Virus record (IMG/VR): IMGVR_UViG_2563366837_000008
Strand: one strand, 5' to 3'
Source of the DNA: a virus
Taxonomy: Duplodnaviria; Heunggongvirae; Uroviricota; Caudoviricetes
DNA: 23,594 bases
The notes beneath the pieces are model-generated. The model was not told where the DNA came from, searched no databases, and worked only from the letters and a program-made list of their open reading frames with translations. A program made the translations under genes and the position numbers. Within the stretch, counting starts at the first letter, position 1. The number at the start of each line of letters is the position of its first letter. This document shows positions 5,898 through 20,715 of this stretch, piece after piece.

Positions 5898-5974
5898 TGG
5901 CGCGTTGTACTGGATTCGAACCAGTGACCGATTGCTTAGAAGGCAATTGCTCTGTCCGGCTGAGCTAACAACGC
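5898..5974 (-). tRNA. tRNA-Arg (anticodon UCU), 77 nt
   Basis: Hand-folded cloverleaf: acceptor GCGTTGT/ACAACGC, D stem GCTC/GAGC, anticodon stem ATTGC/GCAAT with loop CTTCTAA, T arm ACTGG-TTCGAAT-CCAGT, discriminator G plus CCA. Confidence 0.8.
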
Positions 5975-5987
5975 AGGATACAGATAA

Positions 5988-6064
5988 TGGACCGCCTTCG
6001 GGGACCCGAACTCCGCGCAACCAGCTTCGAAGGCTGGCGCTCTATCCTGATGAGCTAATGGCGG
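5988..6064 (-). tRNA. tRNA-Arg-like (anticodon UCG), 77 nt, with non-canonical features
   Basis: Anticodon stem CCAGC/GCTGG with loop CTTCGAA and D arm GCTC...GAGC are clean, but my fold has one acceptor-stem mismatch, one T-stem mismatch and T-loop TTCGGGT (G at position 58). Could be functional or degenerate. Confidence 0.5.
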
Positions 6065-6071
6065 TATGTGA

Positions 6072-6147
6072 TGGTGGCCCTTGCTGGATTTGAACCAGCG
6101 ACCTGGCGATTATGAGTCGCTCGCTCTCACCACTGAGCTAAAGGGCC
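6072..6147 (-). tRNA. ileZ: tRNA-Ile2 (anticodon CAU, lysidine-type; reads AUA), 76 nt
   Basis: Near-identical to E. coli ileX by memory (GGCCCTTTAGCTCAGTGGTGAGAGCGAGCGACTCATAATCGCCAGGTCGCTGGTTCAAATCCAGCAAGGGCCACCA); first tRNA downstream of Q, as ileZ is in Stx phages. Confidence 0.8.
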
Positions 6148-6187: not shown

Positions 6188-6595
6188 TCATCCGTTCTGG
6201 CTGACTAAATCCTGTACTTCCCGAACCGTCTGCTCAAAACGTTCAGTCTCCAGCTCAACGCCAATTGCACGACGCCCGAGCGCCAGTGCCGCTTTCACTG
6301 TCGAACCCGACCCCATGAAAAAATCTGCAATCAGGTCACCCGGACGACTGCTAGCGCTGATTATCTGCTGCAGCATTTCTGCCGGTTTTTCGCACGGATG
6401 TTTCCCGGGATAGAACTGCACCGGTTTATGCGTCCAGACATCGGTATACGGCACCTGCGCCGTCACGCCAAAATACCGCCGCAGTCGGCATTCACAACCA
6501 CCAGCGCATTTAACGTTCAGGCACAAAAAAAACCGCTCATCGGCGGGTTTAAGCTGTGTGACGAAGTAACTACTCTTAACAGCATAACCAATTTT
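6188..6595 (-). pseudogene. C-terminal remnant of an N6/N4 DNA methyltransferase (PF01555-like); N-terminal catalytic half missing
   Basis: Contains the AdoMet-binding end (HPCEKPAEMLQQIISASSRPGDLIADFFMGSGSTVKAALALGRRAIGVELE) but no upstream DPPY/DPPW block; the frame is open only about 23 codons upstream of the track start, then hits a stop and AT-rich DNA. Confidence 0.6.
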
Positions 6596-6976: not shown

Positions 6977-8059
6977 ATGAAAAAATTAACAGTGGCAATT
7001 TCTGCTGTAGCTGCATCAGTACTGATGGCGATGTCTGCTCAGGCAGCTGAAATTTATAATAAAGACAGTAACAAGCTGGATCTATACGGGAAAGTTAATG
7101 CCAAGCACTACTTCTCCTCTAATGATGCAGATGATGGTGATACTACTTATGCCCGTCTTGGCTTCAAAGGTGAAACCCAAATCAACGATCAACTGACTGG
7201 GTTCGGTCAGTGGGAATATGACTTCAAAGGCAACCGTGCTGAATCTCAAGGTTCTTCCAAAGACAAAACCCGTCTTGCATTTGCAGGCCTGAAATTTGGT
7301 GATTACGGCTCAATCGATTACGGCCGTAACTTCGGTGTAGCATACGACATCGGTGCGTGGACTGACGTCCTGCCAGAATTCGGTGGTGACACTTGGACTC
7401 AAACCGACGTGTTCATGACTCAACGTGCAACTGGTGTTGCAACTTATCGTAACAACGACTTCTTTGGTCTGGTCGATGGCCTGAACTTTGCTGCTCAGTA
7501 TCAGGGTAAAAATGACCGCACTGACGTAGCTGAAGCCAATGGTGATGGTTTCGGTTTCTCCACTACTTATGAGTATGAAGGATTCGGCGTGGGTGCAACC
7601 TATGCTAAATCAGATCGCACTGACGGTCAGGTCGCCTATGGTAAGAGCAAATTCAATGCCTCCGGCAAAAATGCGGAAGTATGGGCTGCAGGCCTGAAAT
7701 ATGATGCGAACAATATCTATCTGGCTACCACATATTCTGAAACTCAGAATATGACCGTTTTTGGTAATAACCATATTGCAAACAAAGCACAAAACTTTGA
7801 AGCAGTAGCACAATATCAGTTTGACTTCGGTCTGCGCCCATCTGTTGCTTACCTTCAGTCAAAAGGTAAAGACCTTGGTGTTCATGGTGACCGAGACTTA
7901 GTCAAGTATGTCGATGTCGGTGCTACTTACTACTTTAATAAAAACATGTCCACTTTTGTTGATTACAAAATCAACTTAATTGACGATAGTAAGTTTACCA
8001 AAACAGCTGGTATTGATACCGACGACATCGTCGCTGTAGGTCTGGTTTATCAGTTCTAA
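6977..8059 (+). CDS. nmpC: Prophage-encoded general porin of the OmpC/OmpF/PhoE family (NmpC/Lc-like), 360 aa with signal peptide
   Basis: [23 protein letters not shown] signal peptide then [16 protein letters not shown]... and C-terminal ...VAVGLVYQF; AGGG RBS 8 nt upstream. The track ORF starts 20 codons earlier (6917), which I reject. Opposite orientation just downstream of Q, as nmpC in DLP12. Confidence 0.85.
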
Positions 8060-8647: not shown

Positions 8648-9643
8648 TCAGGACAGCACACCAATCGCCAGCGCGCGATCGATAAAACGAAATATCAGCT
8701 CCAGTTGGGAACCATACTTCTCTTCAAATGCCACGGTATCCGCATGCAGTCCGTCATGGTGTTTTCTGCACAAAGGCAACACAAAAAGGTCATGCGCTTT
8801 TGTACCCATTCCACCCTAACCATGACCAATCAGGTGATGAGGATCGTCGGCTGGCTTACCACAACATGCACACGGCTGCGTCTTAACCCAGCGCGTGTAC
8901 TTTTCATTAACCCAGCGACGACGTTTGGGGCGTAACATAAAAGACTCCGGCGACTCCGGATCCACTTTCAGCGCCAGCACCTTTTTCGCCTTATCCCGGA
9001 TGATGCTGGTGGCAGGAACCGAAGGCACAAGGTCACTTTCCCGGGTGACAGACGGCACAACAGGCTTCGGTAATCTCAGTGCCTTACGGGCTGCACTTTC
9101 CGGTAAGGCATCCGCCAGGTCATTACGAACCAGCCACCAGCACAGTTCCGGCATTGTCACAACGTGGCTGTCATCAAAACCGAGATCACGACGGACTACG
9201 GACAACACCCAGCGGGCACAGTTATCCGTTGCCATTGATTCCAGACGTTCCGTGAACTGATCGCGAAGCAGGTTATCGCAGTGCCAGCACAGACGGATTG
9301 CGCCCGGCGCGTGTCGCATTGTGGTCATGTTCTCGCTGTGCCATCCGGAATGAGGCCACTGGCAGCCTTTTTCACGAAGTAACCAGCTCTCAAGGCATTC
9401 CACGCCACCAGCACGACGGATCACCGCCTCATGGCGGAACACGGCCCGAACGGCAGGATCATCCGCCAGCGGTTGTGATGCTGCCGGAACGGCACCACTG
9501 GCAAAAGATGAATAACGTTCCGGCTCAGGCTCCAGCAGGACACGCCCCTGCATAAACAGGGGCATCAGCTCTGAACCGGGTCTGAACAAGACGATCCCCA
9601 TACGCGGGGCAATTTCAGGGGTCAGCAGTGCTCTCACGGTCAC
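8648..9643 (-). pseudogene. DUF968 (YdfU-like) prophage protein interrupted by an in-frame TAG at 8816..8818
   Basis: The track ORF ends ...CCGKPADDPHHLIGHG at TAG; the same frame continues for 55 codons ([55 protein letters not shown]) to a TGA at 8648..8650, just before Q. Hand-translated. Confidence 0.65.
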
Positions 9644-14911: not shown

Positions 14912-15618
14912 CATCGCTGCCAACCAATAACCTGAAATAACCCCATTTTCGGGTGATACCAGCGAGTCCCTCGCGGTTCTGCTTCCTCCATAACCCGATA
15001 AAAAGCAGCCATAAACGGTTCCACAGCAACAATTGCGCGACGTGACAACAATCCGTCCGGCGTCATGAACTCATGTGTGTCTGTAGGAATTTGATAGGCG
15101 TTCACCAGATTGCGGCATTTATCATCTGACAAACCGGTTTTTGCTTTCAGTTGGCGATATCCGGCATAGCCCTCACGAATAGTGCCCTTTTTAATTTGCT
15201 CGACTGTTTCAGCAACGTGGCTGACTTTTTCTTCCACCTGAGTGATCCGTTTCTGTTGGCGAACGGCTTCAAGAGCCATCGCGGCAACCATTTCGATTTC
15301 GCTCATTGGCTTACGGATCTGTTCTTCCAGTTCGCGCCAGCGATCTACCAGGCAAGCTGTGAATTCAGGACAGAGCTGTGCGACGACAATGATGCTGTCG
15401 CGCTTACCTCGTTCACCTTCGAATACATACGCGCTAGAAAATCGGCGAGGCCCAAGTGATTGTTTATTCTCAATTTCCACAGTCTGTGGAAATTGGATGA
15501 TTCCCTTTTTAGCCAGTGTTTCAATAGTTCTCTTAACACTATCTGGTCGGCTTCCCACCAACTCTGCGATCTCAACGCTGGTCATGGATGCTTTGCCGTT
15601 AAAAATTGCGGTGTTCAT
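14911..15618 (-). CDS. Phage regulatory / antirepressor-like protein with N-terminal HTH-type DNA-binding domain (Rha/ORF6N-like), 235 aa
   Basis: N-terminus MTSVEIAELVGSRPDSVKRTIETLAKKGII; strong AGGAGA RBS; first large gene downstream of the divergent operator region. Confidence 0.6.
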   Translation of the reverse strand: MNTAIFNGKASMTSVEIAELVGSRPDSVKRTIETLAKKGIIQFPQTVEIENKQSLGPRRFSSAYVFEGERGKRDSIIVVAQLCPEFTACLVDRWRELEEQIRKPMSEIEMVAAMALEAVRQQKRITQVEEKVSHVAETVEQIKKGTIREGYAGYRQLKAKTGLSDDKCRNLVNAYQIPTDTHEFMTPDGLLSRRAIVAVEPFMAAFYRVMEEAEPRGTRWYHPKMGLFQVIGWQR

Positions 15619-15842
15619 TGTTGGTCTCCTGTGGGCTTGTCATCTTCTGTATTCGCTAGACTTGGGTGTGTATATGGAATGCTCGGATCCAGATGACAAA
15701 GAATGGCAACATCCTCCGGAACACCTCGCGTTTTCCACTTTCCAACACCTTGACTGCCACGAGGCCTTCCTTTCTTTGGGAACCTGCGACCAATAGCGGC
15801 ATTGGTTTTAAATTGAATTTTTAATATTTCATAAAGGGTCAT
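15615..15842 (-). CDS. Candidate small gene at the cro position, 75 aa, basic with AT-hook-like KKGRPRG segment; doubtful
   Basis: ORF whose TGA overlaps the ATG of the next gene (ATGA); begins about 110 bp from the cI start across the operator region; weak RBS and Gly/Pro/Arg-rich low-complexity tail argue against it. Confidence 0.25.
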   Translation of the reverse strand: MTLYEILKIQFKTNAAIGRRFPKKGRPRGSQGVGKWKTRGVPEDVAILCHLDPSIPYTHPSLANTEDDKPTGDQQ

Positions 15843-15953
15843 TCTTTAGTCTCACGCCAGATACTTTGTTATCCAACGATGTTAACCACAGGAACCCAAA
15901 GTATCAAGAAATTCTGTTACTTTAGTATCAACAGCCATGAGAGGAGAAGAAAA
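15843..15953. promoter_or_regulatory. OR-like divergent promoter/operator region between cI and the pR operon
   Basis: Two copies of an operator-like motif with core GTATCAA (15898..15908 and 15922..15932); on the - strand a TTGATA / 17 bp / TAACAT promoter-like arrangement overlaps them; strong GAGGAG RBS for cI. Confidence 0.5.
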
Positions 15954-16610
15954 ATGAAGTCTTTAGGTGAACGTCTCATCAACGCACGGCAAAAAGCTGG
16001 GTTAACACAAGATGCGTTGGCTAAAAAAGCTGGGGTCACCAGAGTTGCAATAAGTAAAGCCGAGCAAGGCCTTACAAAAAGTTTCAACGGTGACACCCTT
16101 TTTAAAGTTGCAGCTGCACTGCGGTGTTCACCGCAGTGGCTTCAGAACGGAGATGAAAAAGATAAGCATTGGGAAAATAATGTTAAGAGCTGCCCACAGA
16201 GAGACACAGCACACTCTTACCCTGTAATTAACTGGGTTCAGGCAGGATTATTCGCAACTTCTGGTGATGACTACAACATGTATGATCAGGATAATTGGAG
16301 GCATTCTGTAAAATACGCTGGTGAGAGGGGGTTCTGGCTGGAAGTGCACGGAGACTCAATGACTTCGCCCGTAGGAATAACATTTCCTGAAGGAATGTCG
16401 ATCCTTGTCAACCCAGATAAAGAAGTTTTTTCAGGGTGTTACGTCATCGCCAGAAAAAAATCTACCAATGAAGCAACATTCAAAAAATATATTTCTGACA
16501 TGGGAAAGGCGTTTCTAAAGCCCCTTAATCCACAATATCCAATCATAGAAATGGACAATGATTGCGAAATAGTAGGTGTTGTGGTTGATGCCAGGTGGGA
16601 TATTTTCTGA
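15954..16610 (+). CDS. cI: CI-type prophage repressor (N-terminal HTH_XRE + C-terminal S24 LexA-like autopeptidase), 218 aa
   Basis: HTH LTQDALAKKAGVTRVAISKAEQG; Ala-Gly cleavage-site candidate (VQAGLF); S24 Ser/Lys dyad context (HGDSMTSP, ATFKKY); GAGGAG RBS. The track ORF starts 25 codons upstream (15879), which I reject. Confidence 0.85.
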   Translation: MKSLGERLINARQKAGLTQDALAKKAGVTRVAISKAEQGLTKSFNGDTLFKVAAALRCSPQWLQNGDEKDKHWENNVKSCPQRDTAHSYPVINWVQAGLFATSGDDYNMYDQDNWRHSVKYAGERGFWLEVHGDSMTSPVGITFPEGMSILVNPDKEVFSGCYVIARKKSTNEATFKKYISDMGKAFLKPLNPQYPIIEMDNDCEIVGVVVDARWDIF

Positions 16611-16713
16611 CCAGACACAAAACACAAAAAGAAACCAAAGTATCAAAAATCACTTGCCACACCTTGATACCTTAGTTACCATAAAACAAAGTTCGTAACT
16701 GAGGTATCATCTC
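16611..16713 (+). promoter_or_regulatory. OL/pL-like operator-promoter region downstream of cI
   Basis: The same operator core recurs at 16638..16648 (AAAGTATCAAA), inverted at 16664..16674 (TTGATACCTTA), and partially at about 16702..16710; candidate promoter TTGCCA (16654..59) / 17 bp / TACCAT. Confidence 0.45.
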
Positions 16714-17217
16714 ATGATCAATAAAGCTACAACTCTTGACTGTCTCGAAGAACTGAAAAACCTCGGCAGCCTCATTACACTAATAGCAAAAGCAACACCT
16801 GATGCTACGCTCTCTAGCGATATAGAGTCATGCGCAGGACTGGCATGGGATATGACAAATAGCATATCCAGAAAGCTATCGTCAGCAATGCTTTTACAGA
16901 ACAAAAATTCTGCAATCAACAACCGTCTTTGCACCCAACGCGAAGCCTGCGGCTTAACAACCGCCGAACTCGCCAGGCTGCTCGATCTCGATGAAGAAAT
17001 TATCATCCAGTGGGAGAGCGGAGAGTATGAACCAACTATCAGTATGCTTATCCCACTGGCAAATATTCTTGGCTGCGATCCGATGTGGCTGTTAACTGGT
17101 GAGGTTACTCCTCCGGAGCAACCAAAAAGTGAGGAGCAGCAACACCATGACGCATCTCAACAAGTTTGCCCCTTATCTCGCGAAGCTCTTCTACGGAAGA
17201 ACCAATACCAATGGTGA
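16714..17217 (+). CDS. Hypothetical HTH_XRE-domain protein, 167 aa, first gene downstream of the pL-like promoter
   Basis: GAGGT RBS 9 nt upstream; HTH in the C-terminal half (LCTQREACGLTTAELARLLDLDEEIIIQWESGEYEPTISMLIPLANILGCDPMWLLTGE); no arginine-rich N-like motif; Gln-rich low-complexity tail. Confidence 0.6.
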   Translation: MINKATTLDCLEELKNLGSLITLIAKATPDATLSSDIESCAGLAWDMTNSISRKLSSAMLLQNKNSAINNRLCTQREACGLTTAELARLLDLDEEIIIQWESGEYEPTISMLIPLANILGCDPMWLLTGEVTPPEQPKSEEQQHHDASQQVCPLSREALLRKNQYQW

Positions 17218-17345
17218 CATAATCGCCGCTTCGCCCCTCAAGGTACATGCGAACATTTTTATCAATCATTGCGGAAACAGTCTCAATATGAAAACACTTC
17301 TGAGACTCGCTATATAGCAGAACATATAAGTCAGCTGAGGAAACC

Positions 17346-17711
17346 ATGAAAAAGTTCGAAAACATAACTGTTCTCCATGTTGATGACTTTGATTATACAA
17401 ACCCGGAACTTCTCCCGGAGGTTGTAAAGGCAATAGATGTTGCCGATATAGTGATTAGAGAAAAGAGAATTGTCAAAAACAGGCTCGTATGCACTTCAGG
17501 AGCAATGACAGAAACAACCTCACAGCAAGATAATTACGAAGGCATTTGCCTGGAGCCTGATTCATTTGCGGTAAATGTTTATCATTTATTGCATGCAACA
17601 CAGGTATTACATATGTCCAGTAATCACGAAACGAAAACACTCGGCAGCGAAATTCTGAGTTTTGCATGTGAGTATACAAAAGCTGCTGCCGAAAAAGAAT
17701 TAGCGCAATAA
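17346..17711 (+). CDS. Hypothetical protein, 121 aa
   Basis: Strong GAGGA RBS; acidic N-terminal region; no recognisable domain. Confidence 0.6.
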   Translation: MKKFENITVLHVDDFDYTNPELLPEVVKAIDVADIVIREKRIVKNRLVCTSGAMTETTSQQDNYEGICLEPDSFAVNVYHLLHATQVLHMSSNHETKTLGSEILSFACEYTKAAAEKELAQ

Positions 17712-17789
17712 CAACAAATATGCCCTGAACGTTTATTGCGGTTTTATCGCCGGGGATTGTTACAACCTTAAACCACAGGAGGCTTTATT

Positions 17790-17903
17790 GTGACTTTTAT
17801 AAAGAATATGGCATCACACAAGACCGCCTGCCTTATTGCACAATACGGTGAAAATTACATGCATATTGCCTGCTTATTTCTGCGTAAAGCATACGGGAGA
17901 TAA
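17790..17903 (+). CDS. Small ORF, 37 aa, GTG start (M/V-TFIKNMASHKTACLIAQYGENYMHIACLFLRKAYGR)
   Basis: Perfect AGGAGG Shine-Dalgarno 7 nt upstream of the GTG; stop is 2 nt from the next ATG; below track cutoff, hand-translated. Confidence 0.3.
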   Translation: MTFIKNMASHKTACLIAQYGENYMHIACLFLRKAYGR

Positions 17904-17905
17904 TA

Positions 17906-18088
17906 ATGCATCAGAAAACAGCAGAACACGAACAAACCAGAATATTGCTGACCATCAAAAACGGGAAAGTAATATTCATTCGCCATGTTCATGACGATGA
18001 ACTTGTAGGAACTCTTTCAACATTCCTGTTTATTGCAGAAAGGGCAGGATATGACGTTATTGCACCAGCAGATGAAGATGAGGAATAA
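17906..18088 (+). CDS. Hypothetical protein, 60 aa, acidic C-terminus
   Basis: GGGAGA RBS; 5 nt from the downstream gene. Confidence 0.5.
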   Translation: MHQKTAEHEQTRILLTIKNGKVIFIRHVHDDELVGTLSTFLFIAERAGYDVIAPADEDEE

Positions 18089-18093
18089 ATATC

Positions 18094-18675
18094 ATGCAAT
18101 ACGATGAATTCCAGGCTGAAGCAACAGCCAATGGTATACGAACTGGCAGTATGACGATTGATTATCACGACGCCATACGTCGTCTGGATGCCGGAGAATT
18201 CGATACTCCTAATGTGCGAGGTTTACGTATCCTTCAGTGTCTGGCGCAAGCCGACGAAGCAGGATTACTGGGTAAACTTCCGGTTGAGATGAAGGTTGCT
18301 CAGTGGCGATGGTTGTATGTGACGACATTCATCAACGAAGAAGAAGACAAGAACGGCACAATTGATATCCTGAATGAACACGGAACAATTGAACACGCCG
18401 TGGTATATAACGGGATGTATGGGTTTATGACGATATATCCCGGCCCCATTCGATTTGCCTTACAACAGTATATTGAATGGAATTTAATTCAAAAATACGG
18501 CGAAGCTGAAGGAATGGGAAGAGCGCTGTTTCTTTATCAGAAAATGCTCACTACTTCCCCTGATAAAGGTTTCATTCTTTCAGATATGGGTCGAGAAGGG
18601 CTTGAAATCCTTCTGGATGAAATTATTAACGAAATGAATACTCATGGCATGCAATCCGAAACAGATATTAAGTAA
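18094..18675 (+). CDS. Hypothetical protein, 193 aa
   Basis: GAGGAA RBS; globular-looking composition; no motif I can assign. Confidence 0.6.
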   Translation: MQYDEFQAEATANGIRTGSMTIDYHDAIRRLDAGEFDTPNVRGLRILQCLAQADEAGLLGKLPVEMKVAQWRWLYVTTFINEEEDKNGTIDILNEHGTIEHAVVYNGMYGFMTIYPGPIRFALQQYIEWNLIQKYGEAEGMGRALFLYQKMLTTSPDKGFILSDMGREGLEILLDEIINEMNTHGMQSETDIK

Positions 18676-18685
18676 AAGGGACCAC

Positions 18686-18934
18686 ATGACCGTTATCGAG
18701 TATATCCAGGAAAATCCAGATTGCAGTAGAGAAGATATATCCCTCGCACTTGGAAGAAGCGCAACTTCTATCAGTAATGAATTATCACGGTTATTGTGGA
18801 ATGGGTTAATAGTACGAACTGGAGAAAAAAACAAAACGATTCTGTACTGCGTAAACAATCTGCCGTTTGGATACAGCAATCCCCTAAGTGTTATGTTCAA
18901 CCAGTTACTTAAACAGGTAAGAAATGGCAACTGA
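18686..18934 (+). CDS. Hypothetical small winged-helix-like DNA-binding protein, 82 aa
   Basis: AAGGGA RBS; segment CSREDISLALGRSATSISNELSRLLWNGLIVRTGEKNKTILYCV suggests winged helix; the track ORF starts earlier (18644) at an alternative start. Confidence 0.5.
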   Translation: MTVIEYIQENPDCSREDISLALGRSATSISNELSRLLWNGLIVRTGEKNKTILYCVNNLPFGYSNPLSVMFNQLLKQVRNGN

Positions 18935-19241
18935 CTCACAACTAACCATAGAAACGGCCCTGAATGTCGGCCTGGCGCTCCTTGGTTATTTTTACATCGT
19001 GTTCTGCAGCGGACGGTGGCTGTCGCTGTTGTTCCTGAAAAAATGGAATAAACGCCGTAAGCAGGATGAACGCCAGAAGGCAATGAATGCGTTTTCCGAA
19101 GCCTTCGGAATTGACGGCATGGAACCAGGGGATCCAGCTCGCGCAATCAGCAGAGGGGGTGTAGTAATCCTTGTATATCGGAGTGAAGAGAAAAATGACG
19201 ATCACAAAACAACGAGTAGAAAAAATCATATATCGCCATGA
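18924..19241 (+). CDS. Hypothetical membrane protein, 105 aa, one predicted TM segment (LNVGLALLGYFYIVFCSG) followed by a basic stretch
   Basis: ORF overlapping the previous gene by 11 bp; hydrophobic segment followed by KKWNKRRKQDERQK. Confidence 0.5.
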   Translation: MATDSQLTIETALNVGLALLGYFYIVFCSGRWLSLLFLKKWNKRRKQDERQKAMNAFSEAFGIDGMEPGDPARAISRGGVVILVYRSEEKNDDHKTTSRKNHISP

Positions 19242-19509
19242 AATGGGACTGAACAGCGATGTCACTGCCGAAGAGGTTTATGACCTGGCTGTACTGGCGC
19301 TGAATTTATCAAATATCGCAAACCTGAAGCGATACGAGCTTGATATGGATGGTTGCGACTCGTGCGGTCAGGATTGTGGCGCAGATATGACTGAAGATCC
19401 TGATGGTGATTATGTCCTGTTTGATGACGTGGTTAAGTTGTTTGAATTTGATACAACCACTCAAAAGTTAGAAATCCCGGCAAAGGAGGCTGCCAGTGAG
19501 CAAGATTGA
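19195..19509 (+). CDS. Hypothetical acidic protein with CxxC motif, 104 aa from Met9 of the track ORF; start uncertain (alternative ATG at 19243)
   Basis: The track ORF (19171..19509) begins at a TTG; the ATG at 19195 follows GAAGAGAAAA; contains DGCDSCGQDCG. Confidence 0.45.
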   Translation: MTITKQRVEKIIYRHEMGLNSDVTAEEVYDLAVLALNLSNIANLKRYELDMDGCDSCGQDCGADMTEDPDGDYVLFDDVVKLFEFDTTTQKLEIPAKEAASEQD

Positions 19510-20182
19510 CTATCAGGCACTGCGCGAGGCGGCGGAACAGGCAACGCAAGATGAATGGGTAGCATATATTTTGCCGGGTCATAACGGCATTTATCCTGCG
19601 CGCACGTCTGAGGGTAGGCATTGCGGATACTTTATTGACTGGCCTGGCGTCTGTCAGGGGCGGGAGAGCATCAACATGAGCATCAGAACCTACGCAGTGA
19701 ATTGCAATGACGCATGGCTAAACACCGAAGGTGATGACATCTCCGGCTCATACGTTAAGTACAAAGACCATCAGGAAGTGGTTGCCGCTCTTGAGGCCAA
19801 GTGCGCGGCGCTGACAGCGGAGAATGCGGGAATAAAGTCTGCAATTCCAGAATCACGGGATATTGAGGATGACAATGACAATATGGATGACGTATCTCTC
19901 GCGGAAGACTTCGGGTTCAATCATGCAATAGAACGGATGAGGAGACAGATACCTGAAACGCCAACCACTGATGCTTTCCTGGCTGAAGTCCGGGCGCAGG
20001 GGGTGGATGCTGCTATAGAAGCTGCAAAAAATCTGGTGGCCCAAGAATATGAGTATAAGGATTTCAAAGCGGCGCAGAGTGATTGCTGTATGCACCCTGG
20101 TTCAGACCTGGTAGGGAAGGTTGAAATGACTGAGTGGTTAGTTGACTTTGCTGCCCAGCTTCGCAAAGGAGGCAACCAGTGA
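19496..20182 (+). CDS. Ea22-like (Ead/Ea22 family) protein, 228 aa, GTG start
   Basis: N-terminus MSKIDYQALREAAEQATQ typical of Ead/Ea22-like prophage proteins (from memory); AAGGAGG RBS; paralogous to the next gene. Confidence 0.6.
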   Translation: MSKIDYQALREAAEQATQDEWVAYILPGHNGIYPARTSEGRHCGYFIDWPGVCQGRESINMSIRTYAVNCNDAWLNTEGDDISGSYVKYKDHQEVVAALEAKCAALTAENAGIKSAIPESRDIEDDNDNMDDVSLAEDFGFNHAIERMRRQIPETPTTDAFLAEVRAQGVDAAIEAAKNLVAQEYEYKDFKAAQSDCCMHPGSDLVGKVEMTEWLVDFAAQLRKGGNQ

Positions 20183-20715
20183 GCGAAATTAATTACCAGT
20201 CACTGCGTGAGGTGGCGGAACGTGCAATTCCAGCAATGGAACGCCTGTTAATGTTGCCAGCTGATGATGATTTGTTAAGTGAACAGGAACTTAAAGATTA
20301 CGGTGTGGATATTGATGCGCTCAATGCCTTCAAATTTCTGACCGGACCAGAAACCGTGCTGGCACTACTGGATGAACGGGAAAGAAACCAGCAATACATC
20401 AAACGCCGCGACCAGGAGAACGAGGATATTGCGCTTACGGTTGGGAAGCTGCGCGTTGAGCTTGAAGCAGCAAAATCAAAACTCAACGAGCAGCGCGAGT
20501 ATTACGAGGGAGTTATCTCTGATGGGTGCAAGCGTATTGCTGAACTGGAAGCGCGGGAAGTTCAATTACCGACTCGCTACGACCTTCGATATGGACACCC
20601 GATAAATGCAGATGAGCGACAAGTCATGATACCTAAAGAAAATGGCAGTTGGCTTTACCTGATTGACCTAGAACACGCATTACGCGTCGCTGACATTCGT
20701 ATCAAAGGAGAGTGA
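20179..20715 (+). CDS. Ea22-like (Ead/Ea22 family) protein, second paralog, 178 aa, GTG start, coiled-coil
   Basis: N-terminus MSEINYQSLREVAERAIP; an identical AAGGAGG...CCAGTGAGC initiation context to the preceding paralog; 4-bp overlap with it. Confidence 0.6.
   Translation: MSEINYQSLREVAERAIPAMERLLMLPADDDLLSEQELKDYGVDIDALNAFKFLTGPETVLALLDERERNQQYIKRRDQENEDIALTVGKLRVELEAAKSKLNEQREYYEGVISDGCKRIAELEAREVQLPTRYDLRYGHPINADERQVMIPKENGSWLYLIDLEHALRVADIRIKGE

Follow-up and report, generated by a model that had tools for sequence, protein, structure and literature searches.

A block of small genes situated directly downstream of a pL-like promoter was analysed in a 23,594-nucleotide stretch of caudoviral DNA (IMG/VR record IMGVR_UViG_2563366837_000008), which at its full length is referred to below as the window. 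With a little more than even confidence, the block is read as the promoter-proximal half of a CI-repressed pL transcription unit in a phiP27-like, Chi-rich lambdoid prophage without a Rec module, and as an assembly of at least four separately exchanged cassettes of small genes. Genome segments of this kind are known, and this one, an ordinary stretch of a common prophage type, is full of unstudied genes. New here are a corrected gene map, in which three genes missing from RefSeq are added and one truncated gene is restored, the cassette structure, a swap site with a conserved antisense gene, and a family of 193-amino-acid (aa) proteins that has no fold relatives and is common to lambdoid prophages and satellite-like elements with a primase. 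The features of the block are as follows, with HTH denoting helix-turn-helix, ORF open reading frame and SD Shine-Dalgarno site.

16611-16713, no strand: OL/pL-like region, the 103-bp gap between cI (15954-16610, +) and the first block gene
16714-17217, +: 167-aa Cro/C1-type HTH protein (Pfam HTH_3, phrog_4739)
17105-17365, -: antisense 86-aa gene, without RefSeq annotation; GGAG 7 nt before the ATG
17346-17711, +: 121-aa gene (L08 of phiP27); phrog_5451 over 121/121 residues, E 5e-83
17790-17903, +: 37-aa basic micro-ORF; GTG start, AGGAGG SD, never annotated by PGAP
17906-18088, +: 60-aa acidic protein, 2 nt after the 37-aa ORF; phrog_340, E 3.9e-22
18094-18675, +: 193-aa acidic protein (net charge -14), 5 nt after the 60-aa ORF; unnamed family across Enterobacterales
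18686-18934, +: 82-aa winged-HTH (MarR-like) protein, 96 aa if read from 18644; phrog_1687 'MarR family', E 1.5e-24
18924-19241, +: 105-aa DUF4752 protein; Pfam DUF4752, E 7e-37, 125.8 bits against a cut-off of 27
19195-19509, + (112 aa from 19171): 104-aa acidic protein; phrog_3126, E 4.9e-64; RefSeq WP_001300189.1

Prophage type, control region and gene map

The window represents a lambdoid prophage of the phiP27-like kind, situated at the yecE/yecN site of E. coli. Prophages in the chromosomes of E. coli U1 and NMBU_W05E18 match positions 15800-19600 with 100% identity; of 5426 complete E. coli genomes, 1530 contain at least a portion of this stretch and 111 contain 80% or more. The gene map was taken from the RefSeq record of strain U1 (locus coordinate + 3799 = window coordinate), where the prophage adjoins yecN/cmoA and carries on its - strand a Q-type antiterminator, DnaB/DnaC-type replication genes, two Rha-family genes and a cro-like gene, and on its + strand a LexA-type S24 repressor (cI), the block, Ea22-like genes, excisionase and integrase. 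The nearest phage was PhiR49_2 (99% over 16927-19544), other near phages being Shiga toxin (Stx) 1a and Stx2a phages integrated at yecE (~89%) and the Stx2e phage phiP27. Phage records carrying the block include phiP27, PhiR49_2 and ASU11, the last obtained by mitomycin C induction.

Chi (GCTGGTGG) was found 12 times in the 23.6-kb window against an expectation of 0.73, with 10 copies on the - strand (426, 473, 875, 6498, 9134, 9405, 9758, 10408, 12549 and 21860), which is the strand of rightward and late transcription, and two on the + strand (9005 and 13683). No ORF between cI and int gave a family match to a Rec module (exo/bet/gam, erf/abc or recET) in Pfam, PHROGs or NCBIfam. The same databases gave no match to an N-type antiterminator, the first pL gene encoding an HTH_3 protein instead, and Rfam gave no structured RNA (put-like elements, known small RNAs) at E <= 1 in 15500-20500. 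Among 314 Enterobacterales lambdoid phages, 68 have been described that lack a Rec module, carry many Chi sites, mostly in one orientation, and are proposed to depend on host RecBCD; their prototype LLS also lacks N, and none of the unknown genes in their early-left regions is universal (PMC12315714, Genome Res 2025). The Chi count of the window and the absent Rec module fit membership of the prophage in this 'no Rec module, Chi-rich' class A. A reading made from the sequence alone, without database searches, had recognised no N, kil, cIII, gam, bet/exo or recET in the block; no such family was matched in the three databases, and the lack of gam, bet and exo is accounted for by the described class.

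The same sequence-only reading had placed an OL/pL-like region upstream of the block, and several elements agree with it. The operator word AAGTATCAA occurs exactly at 15899 in OR and at 16638-16646 (+) in OL, with one-mismatch copies at 15923 (OR) and 16664-16672 (-, OL). Inverted repeats of 14-15 nt are found at 16633-16646/16664-16677 and 16665-16679/16695-16709, and a promoter-like TTGCCA-17-TACCAT lies at 16654-16682. Given the shared operator word, the repeats and the promoter-like site, assignment as OL/pL is reasonable. The block itself lies between cI/OL and xis-int and reads in the direction of cI (+), as an early-left segment does. A simple consensus scan predicted no terminator-like site on the + strand in 15764-19006. 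Upon departure of CI from OL, RNA polymerase would be expected to start near 16690 and to read through the whole block toward xis and int, and N would not be needed across the block because the scan predicted no such site there.

All nine ORFs that the sequence-only reading had listed were found where it had placed them, its unsized ninth being the 104-aa ORF, which extends past 19241, the end of the interval it had drawn. The SD motifs GAGGA, AGGAGG, GGGAGA and GAGGAA precede the starts of the 121-, 37-, 60- and 193-aa ORFs, respectively, also as it had reported. The RefSeq/PGAP map of the identical prophage is without the antisense 86-aa, the 37-aa and the 82-aa winged-HTH genes, and of the 121-aa gene it calls only the last 68 aa (17505-17711), starting 53 codons late. 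Homologues of the latter in Citrobacter and Salmonella are exactly 121 aa long with both halves conserved at 30-33% identity, so the 68-aa call is too short.

Coding status was evaluated from substitutions counted at codon positions 1/2/3, chiefly against ASU11 (77% nucleotide identity over 17050-18652). Third-position bias without stops was observed against diverged relatives for the antisense 86-aa, 37-aa and 193-aa ORFs. The 193-aa ORF gave 44/30/91 against ASU11 and the 37-aa ORF 10/4/20 (16 synonymous and 11 non-synonymous codons, with 13 and 11 against the sister prophage L087 at 70% identity). The antisense ORF gave 16/12/36 (25-26 synonymous and 21 non-synonymous codons, no stop) against ASU11 and 19/9/48 between ASU11 and Salmonella, with the same bias in five pairwise comparisons among four lineages. 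Every block ORF but the 37-aa one matched a PHROG family at E 4e-22 to 3e-98. That the 37-aa ORF, the antisense 86-aa ORF and the N-terminal half of the 121-aa ORF are chance open frames, as PGAP's omission of the 37-, 86- and 82-aa ORFs and its shortening of the 121-aa ORF would allow, is hardly credible in view of third-position-biased substitutions without stops, lengths kept across genera, PHROG families for all but the 37-aa ORF and a confident AlphaFold2 core for the antisense product. On these substitution patterns the block ORFs are real genes, with purifying selection even on the 37-aa and antisense 86-aa ORFs.

The genes are as uncharacterised as the sequence-only reading had held them to be: every source labels them 'hypothetical', none of the classical lambda early-left genes is present, and no mention of the block accessions, PHROG identifiers or DUF4752 was found in the literature searched. 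The 193-, 104-, 167-, 121- and 60-aa products are all acidic (net charges -14, -15, -10, -8 and -6). PADLOC-DB v2 gave generic HTH-domain matches only, for both DNA-binding proteins (the RmrA N-terminus, capH and winged-HTH parts of CasR/Csa3), with no match for the other eight proteins and no system-specific model with partner genes. A scan of genome contigs for relatives found none.

Breakpoints, the conserved gene order and the swap site

Breakpoints within the block fall at about 16927, 17101, 17259, 17526, 18652 and 19198. The alignment to phiP27 breaks at 17100 and 17259 and that to ASU11 at 17050, and the match to PhiR49_2 begins at 16927. A Stx1a phage aligns over 16501-17082 (82%) and 17526-19198 (89%), with 17083-17525 having no counterpart in it. 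The breakpoints at 16927 and 17101 recur across E. coli genomes and bracket the HTH core of the 167-aa protein (~residues 72-129), leaving a variable N-domain (residues 1-70) and a poorly conserved tail on either side, the tail being encoded opposite the antisense 86-aa gene. In that overlap it is the antisense frame that is conserved, since the + frame of the tail gives 14/29/14 with stops against ASU11 and the antisense frame is third-position biased.

The 167-aa protein matches Pfam HTH_3 (E 2.6e-10, 40.6 bits against a gathering cut-off of 23) and phrog_4739 over its full length (E 2.6e-98). A further match, to phrog_4836 'CII-like regulator' (E 2.6e-39), is a label only, no CII-specific model having been matched. 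Its best sequence matches in PDB are the DNA-binding domains of P22 C2 and 434 repressor. The protein would bind DNA through this observed domain, probably as an early regulator in the position that N takes in lambda. The counterpart in a Stx1a phage (L002 4907-5557, LC567819) is 216 aa long and has two tandem HTH domains.

Beyond E. coli, the arrangement of HTH, antisense and 121-aa genes was found in Citrobacter freundii and three Salmonella contigs, adjoining three different repressors. The HTH gene (153-175 aa) there overlaps the antisense 3' end by 101-119 nt, and the 121-aa gene overlaps the antisense start by 20 nt. The same operons hold homologues of the 37-aa (59-65% identity), 60-aa (46%, Salmonella) and 193-aa (40-46%) products further downstream, with extra ORFs between. 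The order HTH, antisense 86, 121, 37, 60, 193 is accordingly kept in Escherichia, Citrobacter and Salmonella at protein identities of 30-65% and beside unrelated repressors. As judged from this comparison, the six proximal genes have long been syntenic in the phage lineage, and an order kept across three genera does not fit a hotspot of fast turnover.

The antisense 86-aa gene shares 113 nt with the end of the HTH gene and 20 nt with the start of the 121-aa gene. It is 86-88 aa long in E. coli, E. albertii, Salmonella and Citrobacter (identity 64-96%), and fold and sequence searches with its product gave no functional hint; a GIY-YIG nuclease domain, which would call for a significant fold or profile match together with the catalytic Tyr/Tyr/Arg/Glu/Asn set, was considered and rejected. 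In phiP27-type variants the 158 bp at 17101-17258 of the window are replaced by 518 bp that hold a different 75-aa ORF, also antisense, and the 86-aa ORF is cut to 50 aa. Given this replacement by another antisense ORF, the interval between the regulator and the 121-aa gene is, on comparative evidence, a swap site for reverse-orientation genes. The 86-aa gene can probably be dispensed with, as no more than its first 36 codons remain in the phage record of phiP27, and its presence also varies among 80 IMG/VR loci, which were chosen for carrying the 193-aa gene and are the sample for all linkage counts given here.

No convincing conserved sigma-70 site was found as a promoter for the antisense gene, with no consensus site at all in Salmonella, and no convincing terminator was seen. 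A TATAAT at 17397-17392 was rejected as it is not kept in other genera, and a conserved TTGACA falls in conserved codons. The opposite-strand gene is a real gene occupying the swap site; with its presence/absence polymorphism observed, it behaves like a moron whose expression would be uncoupled from pL. Within it, a perfect 7-bp inverted repeat (AGTCTCA-N15-TGAGACT) lies at 17279-17307, and the sole other AGTCTCA in the window lies at 15848-15854, within the control region between cro and cI. A role of this palindrome as operator or RNA element was rejected, since the word occurs about as often as expected by chance, the stretch has synonymous changes along its whole length and neighbouring regulators do not share recognition helices across genera. 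It was judged a by-product of a highly conserved peptide.

The 121-aa gene shows ~96% nucleotide identity to ASU11 and phiP27 between flanks at ~77%, a difference that indicates, at the level of alignment, recent exchange of this gene alone. Its C-terminal half is a helical domain that also exists as stand-alone proteins of 63-66 aa; residues 57-121 match phrog_4587, and across 47 aa the domain shares 43% identity (E 5e-10) with the N-domain that the 150-aa regulator of the sister prophage L087 carries. Because its helical domain equals the N-domain of sister-phage regulators, the 121-aa protein would probably bind or modulate Cro/C1-type HTH regulators. Paralogy with the N-domain of the window's own HTH protein was not supported (nothing by BLASTP, hhalign probability 8%), so that the relationship holds for the sister regulator only.

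Not all of the 80 loci have the winged-HTH, DUF4752 and 104-aa genes (29 lack the winged-HTH gene), and the three may be regarded as optional cargo. The 82-aa protein scores 23.0 bits with Pfam MarR_2, under the cut-off of 27, other winged-HTH models being weaker, and has no PDB sequence match; its counterpart in Stx1a phages is annotated as MarR family. The DUF4752 protein (isoelectric point (pI) 9.4) has one predicted membrane helix at residues 12-30, with a maximal Kyte-Doolittle 19-residue mean of 1.67 at residue 12, followed by a basic stretch. The 104-aa protein (pI 4.1) contains a CxxCxxxC stretch.

The 37-, 60- and 193-aa genes

The sequence-only reading had taken the spacing of the 37-, 60- and 193-aa ORFs, confirmed here as 2 and 5 nt, to suggest one co-translated unit. 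Linkage agrees with this in the lambdoid loci, where the 37- and 60-aa genes accompany the 193-aa gene in 80 of 80 cases, and the 121-aa gene or its 63-66-aa short form is present in 78, the remaining two loci ending just upstream. The suggestion is qualified by members of the 193-aa family in satellite-like elements that have neither the 37- nor the 60-aa gene. With their spacing observed and the genes always linked in lambdoid relatives, the three would be translationally coupled, and their products probably act together as small, acidic protein-binding factors against a host or competitor target rather than as enzymes of a known class.

Copies of the 37-aa ORF are annotated in Stx1a phages, and those in Salmonella and Citrobacter are 59-65% identical to it. 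The 60-aa protein has no Pfam match, and a word-based search returned close relatives only; its similarity to two antirepressor PHROGs (phrog_4792, E 1.2e-6; phrog_2379, E 9e-4) is weak and covers only ~45 of their C-terminal positions. Its identification as lambda orf60a was rejected because tblastn against the phage collection matched no lambda record.

Despite a confident model, the 193-aa family has no relative in Pfam, PDB or BFVD. An MbcA/ParS-type antitoxin toxin-binding domain was considered for it as a tentative candidate. Near-invariant polar residues of the family are D37, R72, N87, Y105, R120, E128 and Y148. Domain fusions were discarded as a functional hint, longer matches being without informative Pfam domains and a single 973-aa match (E 1.7e-5) being a tail/Ig-repeat protein. 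The allele of the window ends in ...GMQSETDIK (18640-18675) and most of the family in ...P.P..H; the divergent end coincides with the overlap of the longest winged-HTH frame and with the breakpoint at 18652.

Distant members of the family (29-39% identity) sit in early operons of elements with a P4 alpha-type primase, in which an antirepressor gene and several small ORFs are followed by the 193-family gene and, 0-3 genes later, by a 920-aa primase gene. No 37-, 60- or 121-aa homologues were found in these elements. Because it is found without them, the 193-aa protein is, on the evidence of gene neighbourhoods, an autonomous early-operon function common to two classes of mobile element, and it would form the autonomous part of the triplet. 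In one primase-bearing element (L113, 3506-3757), an 83-aa ORF two genes upstream of the 193-family gene is weakly similar to phrog_340 (E 7e-4); tblastn confirmed no link of the 60-aa family in other primase elements.

Alternative readings and known counterparts

The corresponding region of lambda holds host-takeover genes, and the sequence-only reading had proposed a single accessory module of nine jointly functioning ORFs, serving defence, superinfection exclusion or anti-defence, in a cargo hotspot after pL. The position is equivalent to that lambda region, the genes are tightly packed on one strand with good SD sites and all products are unnamed. The comparisons nevertheless speak against one module: breakpoints and patterns of presence and absence differ between the N-domain of the HTH protein, the antisense slot, the triplet and the three distal genes, and these pieces assort independently, two members are ordinary DNA-binding proteins, PADLOC matches are to HTH domains only and the proximal six keep their order over three genera, unlike hotspot cargo. 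A single module is very unlikely on this evidence. What survives of the hotspot is confined to the antisense slot and the winged-HTH/DUF4752/104-aa part, whose behaviour resembles that of exchangeable cargo.

The conserved order in Escherichia, Citrobacter and Salmonella beside different repressors could also be read to mean that the set from HTH to 193 supplies core early functions (antitermination, help in replication or recombination, lysis-lysogeny control) that are otherwise not recognisable in this lineage. The phage has neither N nor a Rec module, and the 193-aa family lies just upstream of primase genes in other elements. Set against this are the phage record of phiP27 with a truncated 86-aa gene, the Stx1a phages without the 86-aa gene and the N-terminal half of the 121-aa gene, the lack of any universal unknown gene in early-left regions of phages without a Rec module (PMC12315714) and the absence of detected nucleic-acid-enzyme domains. 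Core function of the set is decidedly improbable, if slightly less so than a single module. Somewhat more room is left for the antisense 86-aa gene as a lysogen-expressed moron (exclusion or conversion) whose transcript would also dampen the HTH gene by antisense pairing in the manner of lambda oop/cII. Its reverse orientation in a repressed operon with its own SD, its overlap of 101-119 nt with the HTH 3' end in the window, Citrobacter and Salmonella, the slot where other antisense ORFs substitute for it and the clear purifying selection on it all point this way. No conserved sigma-70 promoter was found in its favour, the overlap with the HTH gene shrinks to ~11 nt in ASU11, and fold and sequence offer no functional hint, which leaves this a tentative minority view. 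A little less probable still is a counter-immunity role, early in lambdoid phages and P4-type satellites, in which the 37-60-193 triplet or its 193-aa member by itself would inhibit a host defence effector or the repressor of a resident prophage. The joint reading, in which the 193-aa protein is a new fold family for early counter-immunity in lambdoid and P4-type elements, aided by the 37- and 60-aa proteins and binding as an antitoxin mimic, and the 86-aa protein is a lysogen-expressed exclusion factor in a new moron slot of pL, is unlikely as a whole.

The reading of the block as separately exchanged cassettes in the promoter-proximal half of the pL unit thus remains the preferred one, and several points weigh against it. 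The pL start site, read-through and translational coupling are deduced from sequence alone, and a consensus terminator scan leaves Rho-dependent termination possible. An order kept across three genera could mean an essential lineage function rather than accessory roles. The role of the 121-aa protein as a regulator partner is argued from sister phages, the window's own HTH N-domain having no detectable similarity to its C-domain, and the near-invariant polar residues of the 193-aa family could mark an active site and not a purely binding role.

Roughly one in five lambdoid phages is without a Rec module (PMC12315714), and the early-left operons of these phages are full of comparable unnamed genes. 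Two tractable targets stand out from the block, namely the 193-aa family, with a confident model and no fold relative, and the conserved opposite-strand gene in the swap site. Should either act on host immunity or resident prophages, it would represent a new counter-defence family of temperate phages, including Shiga toxin phages that carry the same genes.

Elsewhere in the window, an OmpC-type porin gene at ~6977-8059 (+), of low GC content (0.38-0.44) and on the strand opposite to its neighbours, resembles a conversion-type moron, and according to the identical RefSeq record three tRNA genes (Arg, Arg, Ile) lie at ~5898-6147 (-), downstream of the Q-type antiterminator region. The identical prophage also holds a DUF968 gene with an internal stop (~8648-9637, -) and a truncated DNA methyltransferase gene (6188-6484, -); from these lesions the prophage copy may be partly decayed. 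In strain N32 (NZ_CM165895.1), an IS4 insertion is present in an otherwise 99.6% identical copy of the region.

Among known systems, the early-left operons of lambda (N-cIII-kil-gam-bet-exo-ea) and P22 (24-ral-17-c3-kil-arf-abc-erf) share with the block their position between cI/OL and xis-int on the cI strand, an operator-flanked promoter, small and tightly packed genes and mosaic exchange among phages. Unlike them, the block holds no named lambda or P22 gene, begins with an HTH protein and not with N, and is without a Rec module. The likeness to lambda oop RNA and cII is that an opposite-strand transcript would overlap the 3' end of an HTH regulator, here by 113 nt; the block differs in that the gene is protein-coding and under purifying selection, that the overlap is nearly gone in ASU11 and that the RNA effect is putative. 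With class A as represented by LLS (PMC12315714), the prophage has in common that no recombination or anti-RecBCD genes are recognisable, that N is missing and that Chi sites are abundant. The early-left operon of LLS is closest to those of ST64B and phiNP, with yfbR/yfdQ/yfdP-type genes, none of which was seen in the window, and phiP27 is not named in the main text of that paper. The satellite-like elements of Enterobacterales with a P4 alpha-type primase resemble the block in carrying a 193-family member in a string of small early genes, but have no 37-, 60-, 121- or HTH167-type genes, the neighbours being antirepressor genes and the 920-aa primase.

The closest counterparts are direct homologues. 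In phiP27 (AJ298298), L10 corresponds to the HTH gene, L08 to the 121-aa gene, L07 to the 60-aa family and L06 to the 193-aa family, the difference being another antisense ORF, L09, beside the remnant of the 86-aa gene; in L012, a close relative of phiP27, the 86-aa ORF is likewise truncated, to 50 aa. In the Stx1a phages the regulator is the 216-aa tandem-HTH protein, the 121-aa gene is represented by a 66-aa version, and the antisense gene is missing. In phiP27 and in the yecE-integrated Stx1a and Stx2a phages alike, the same order lies beside an almost identical repressor, with every gene annotated as 'unknown'.

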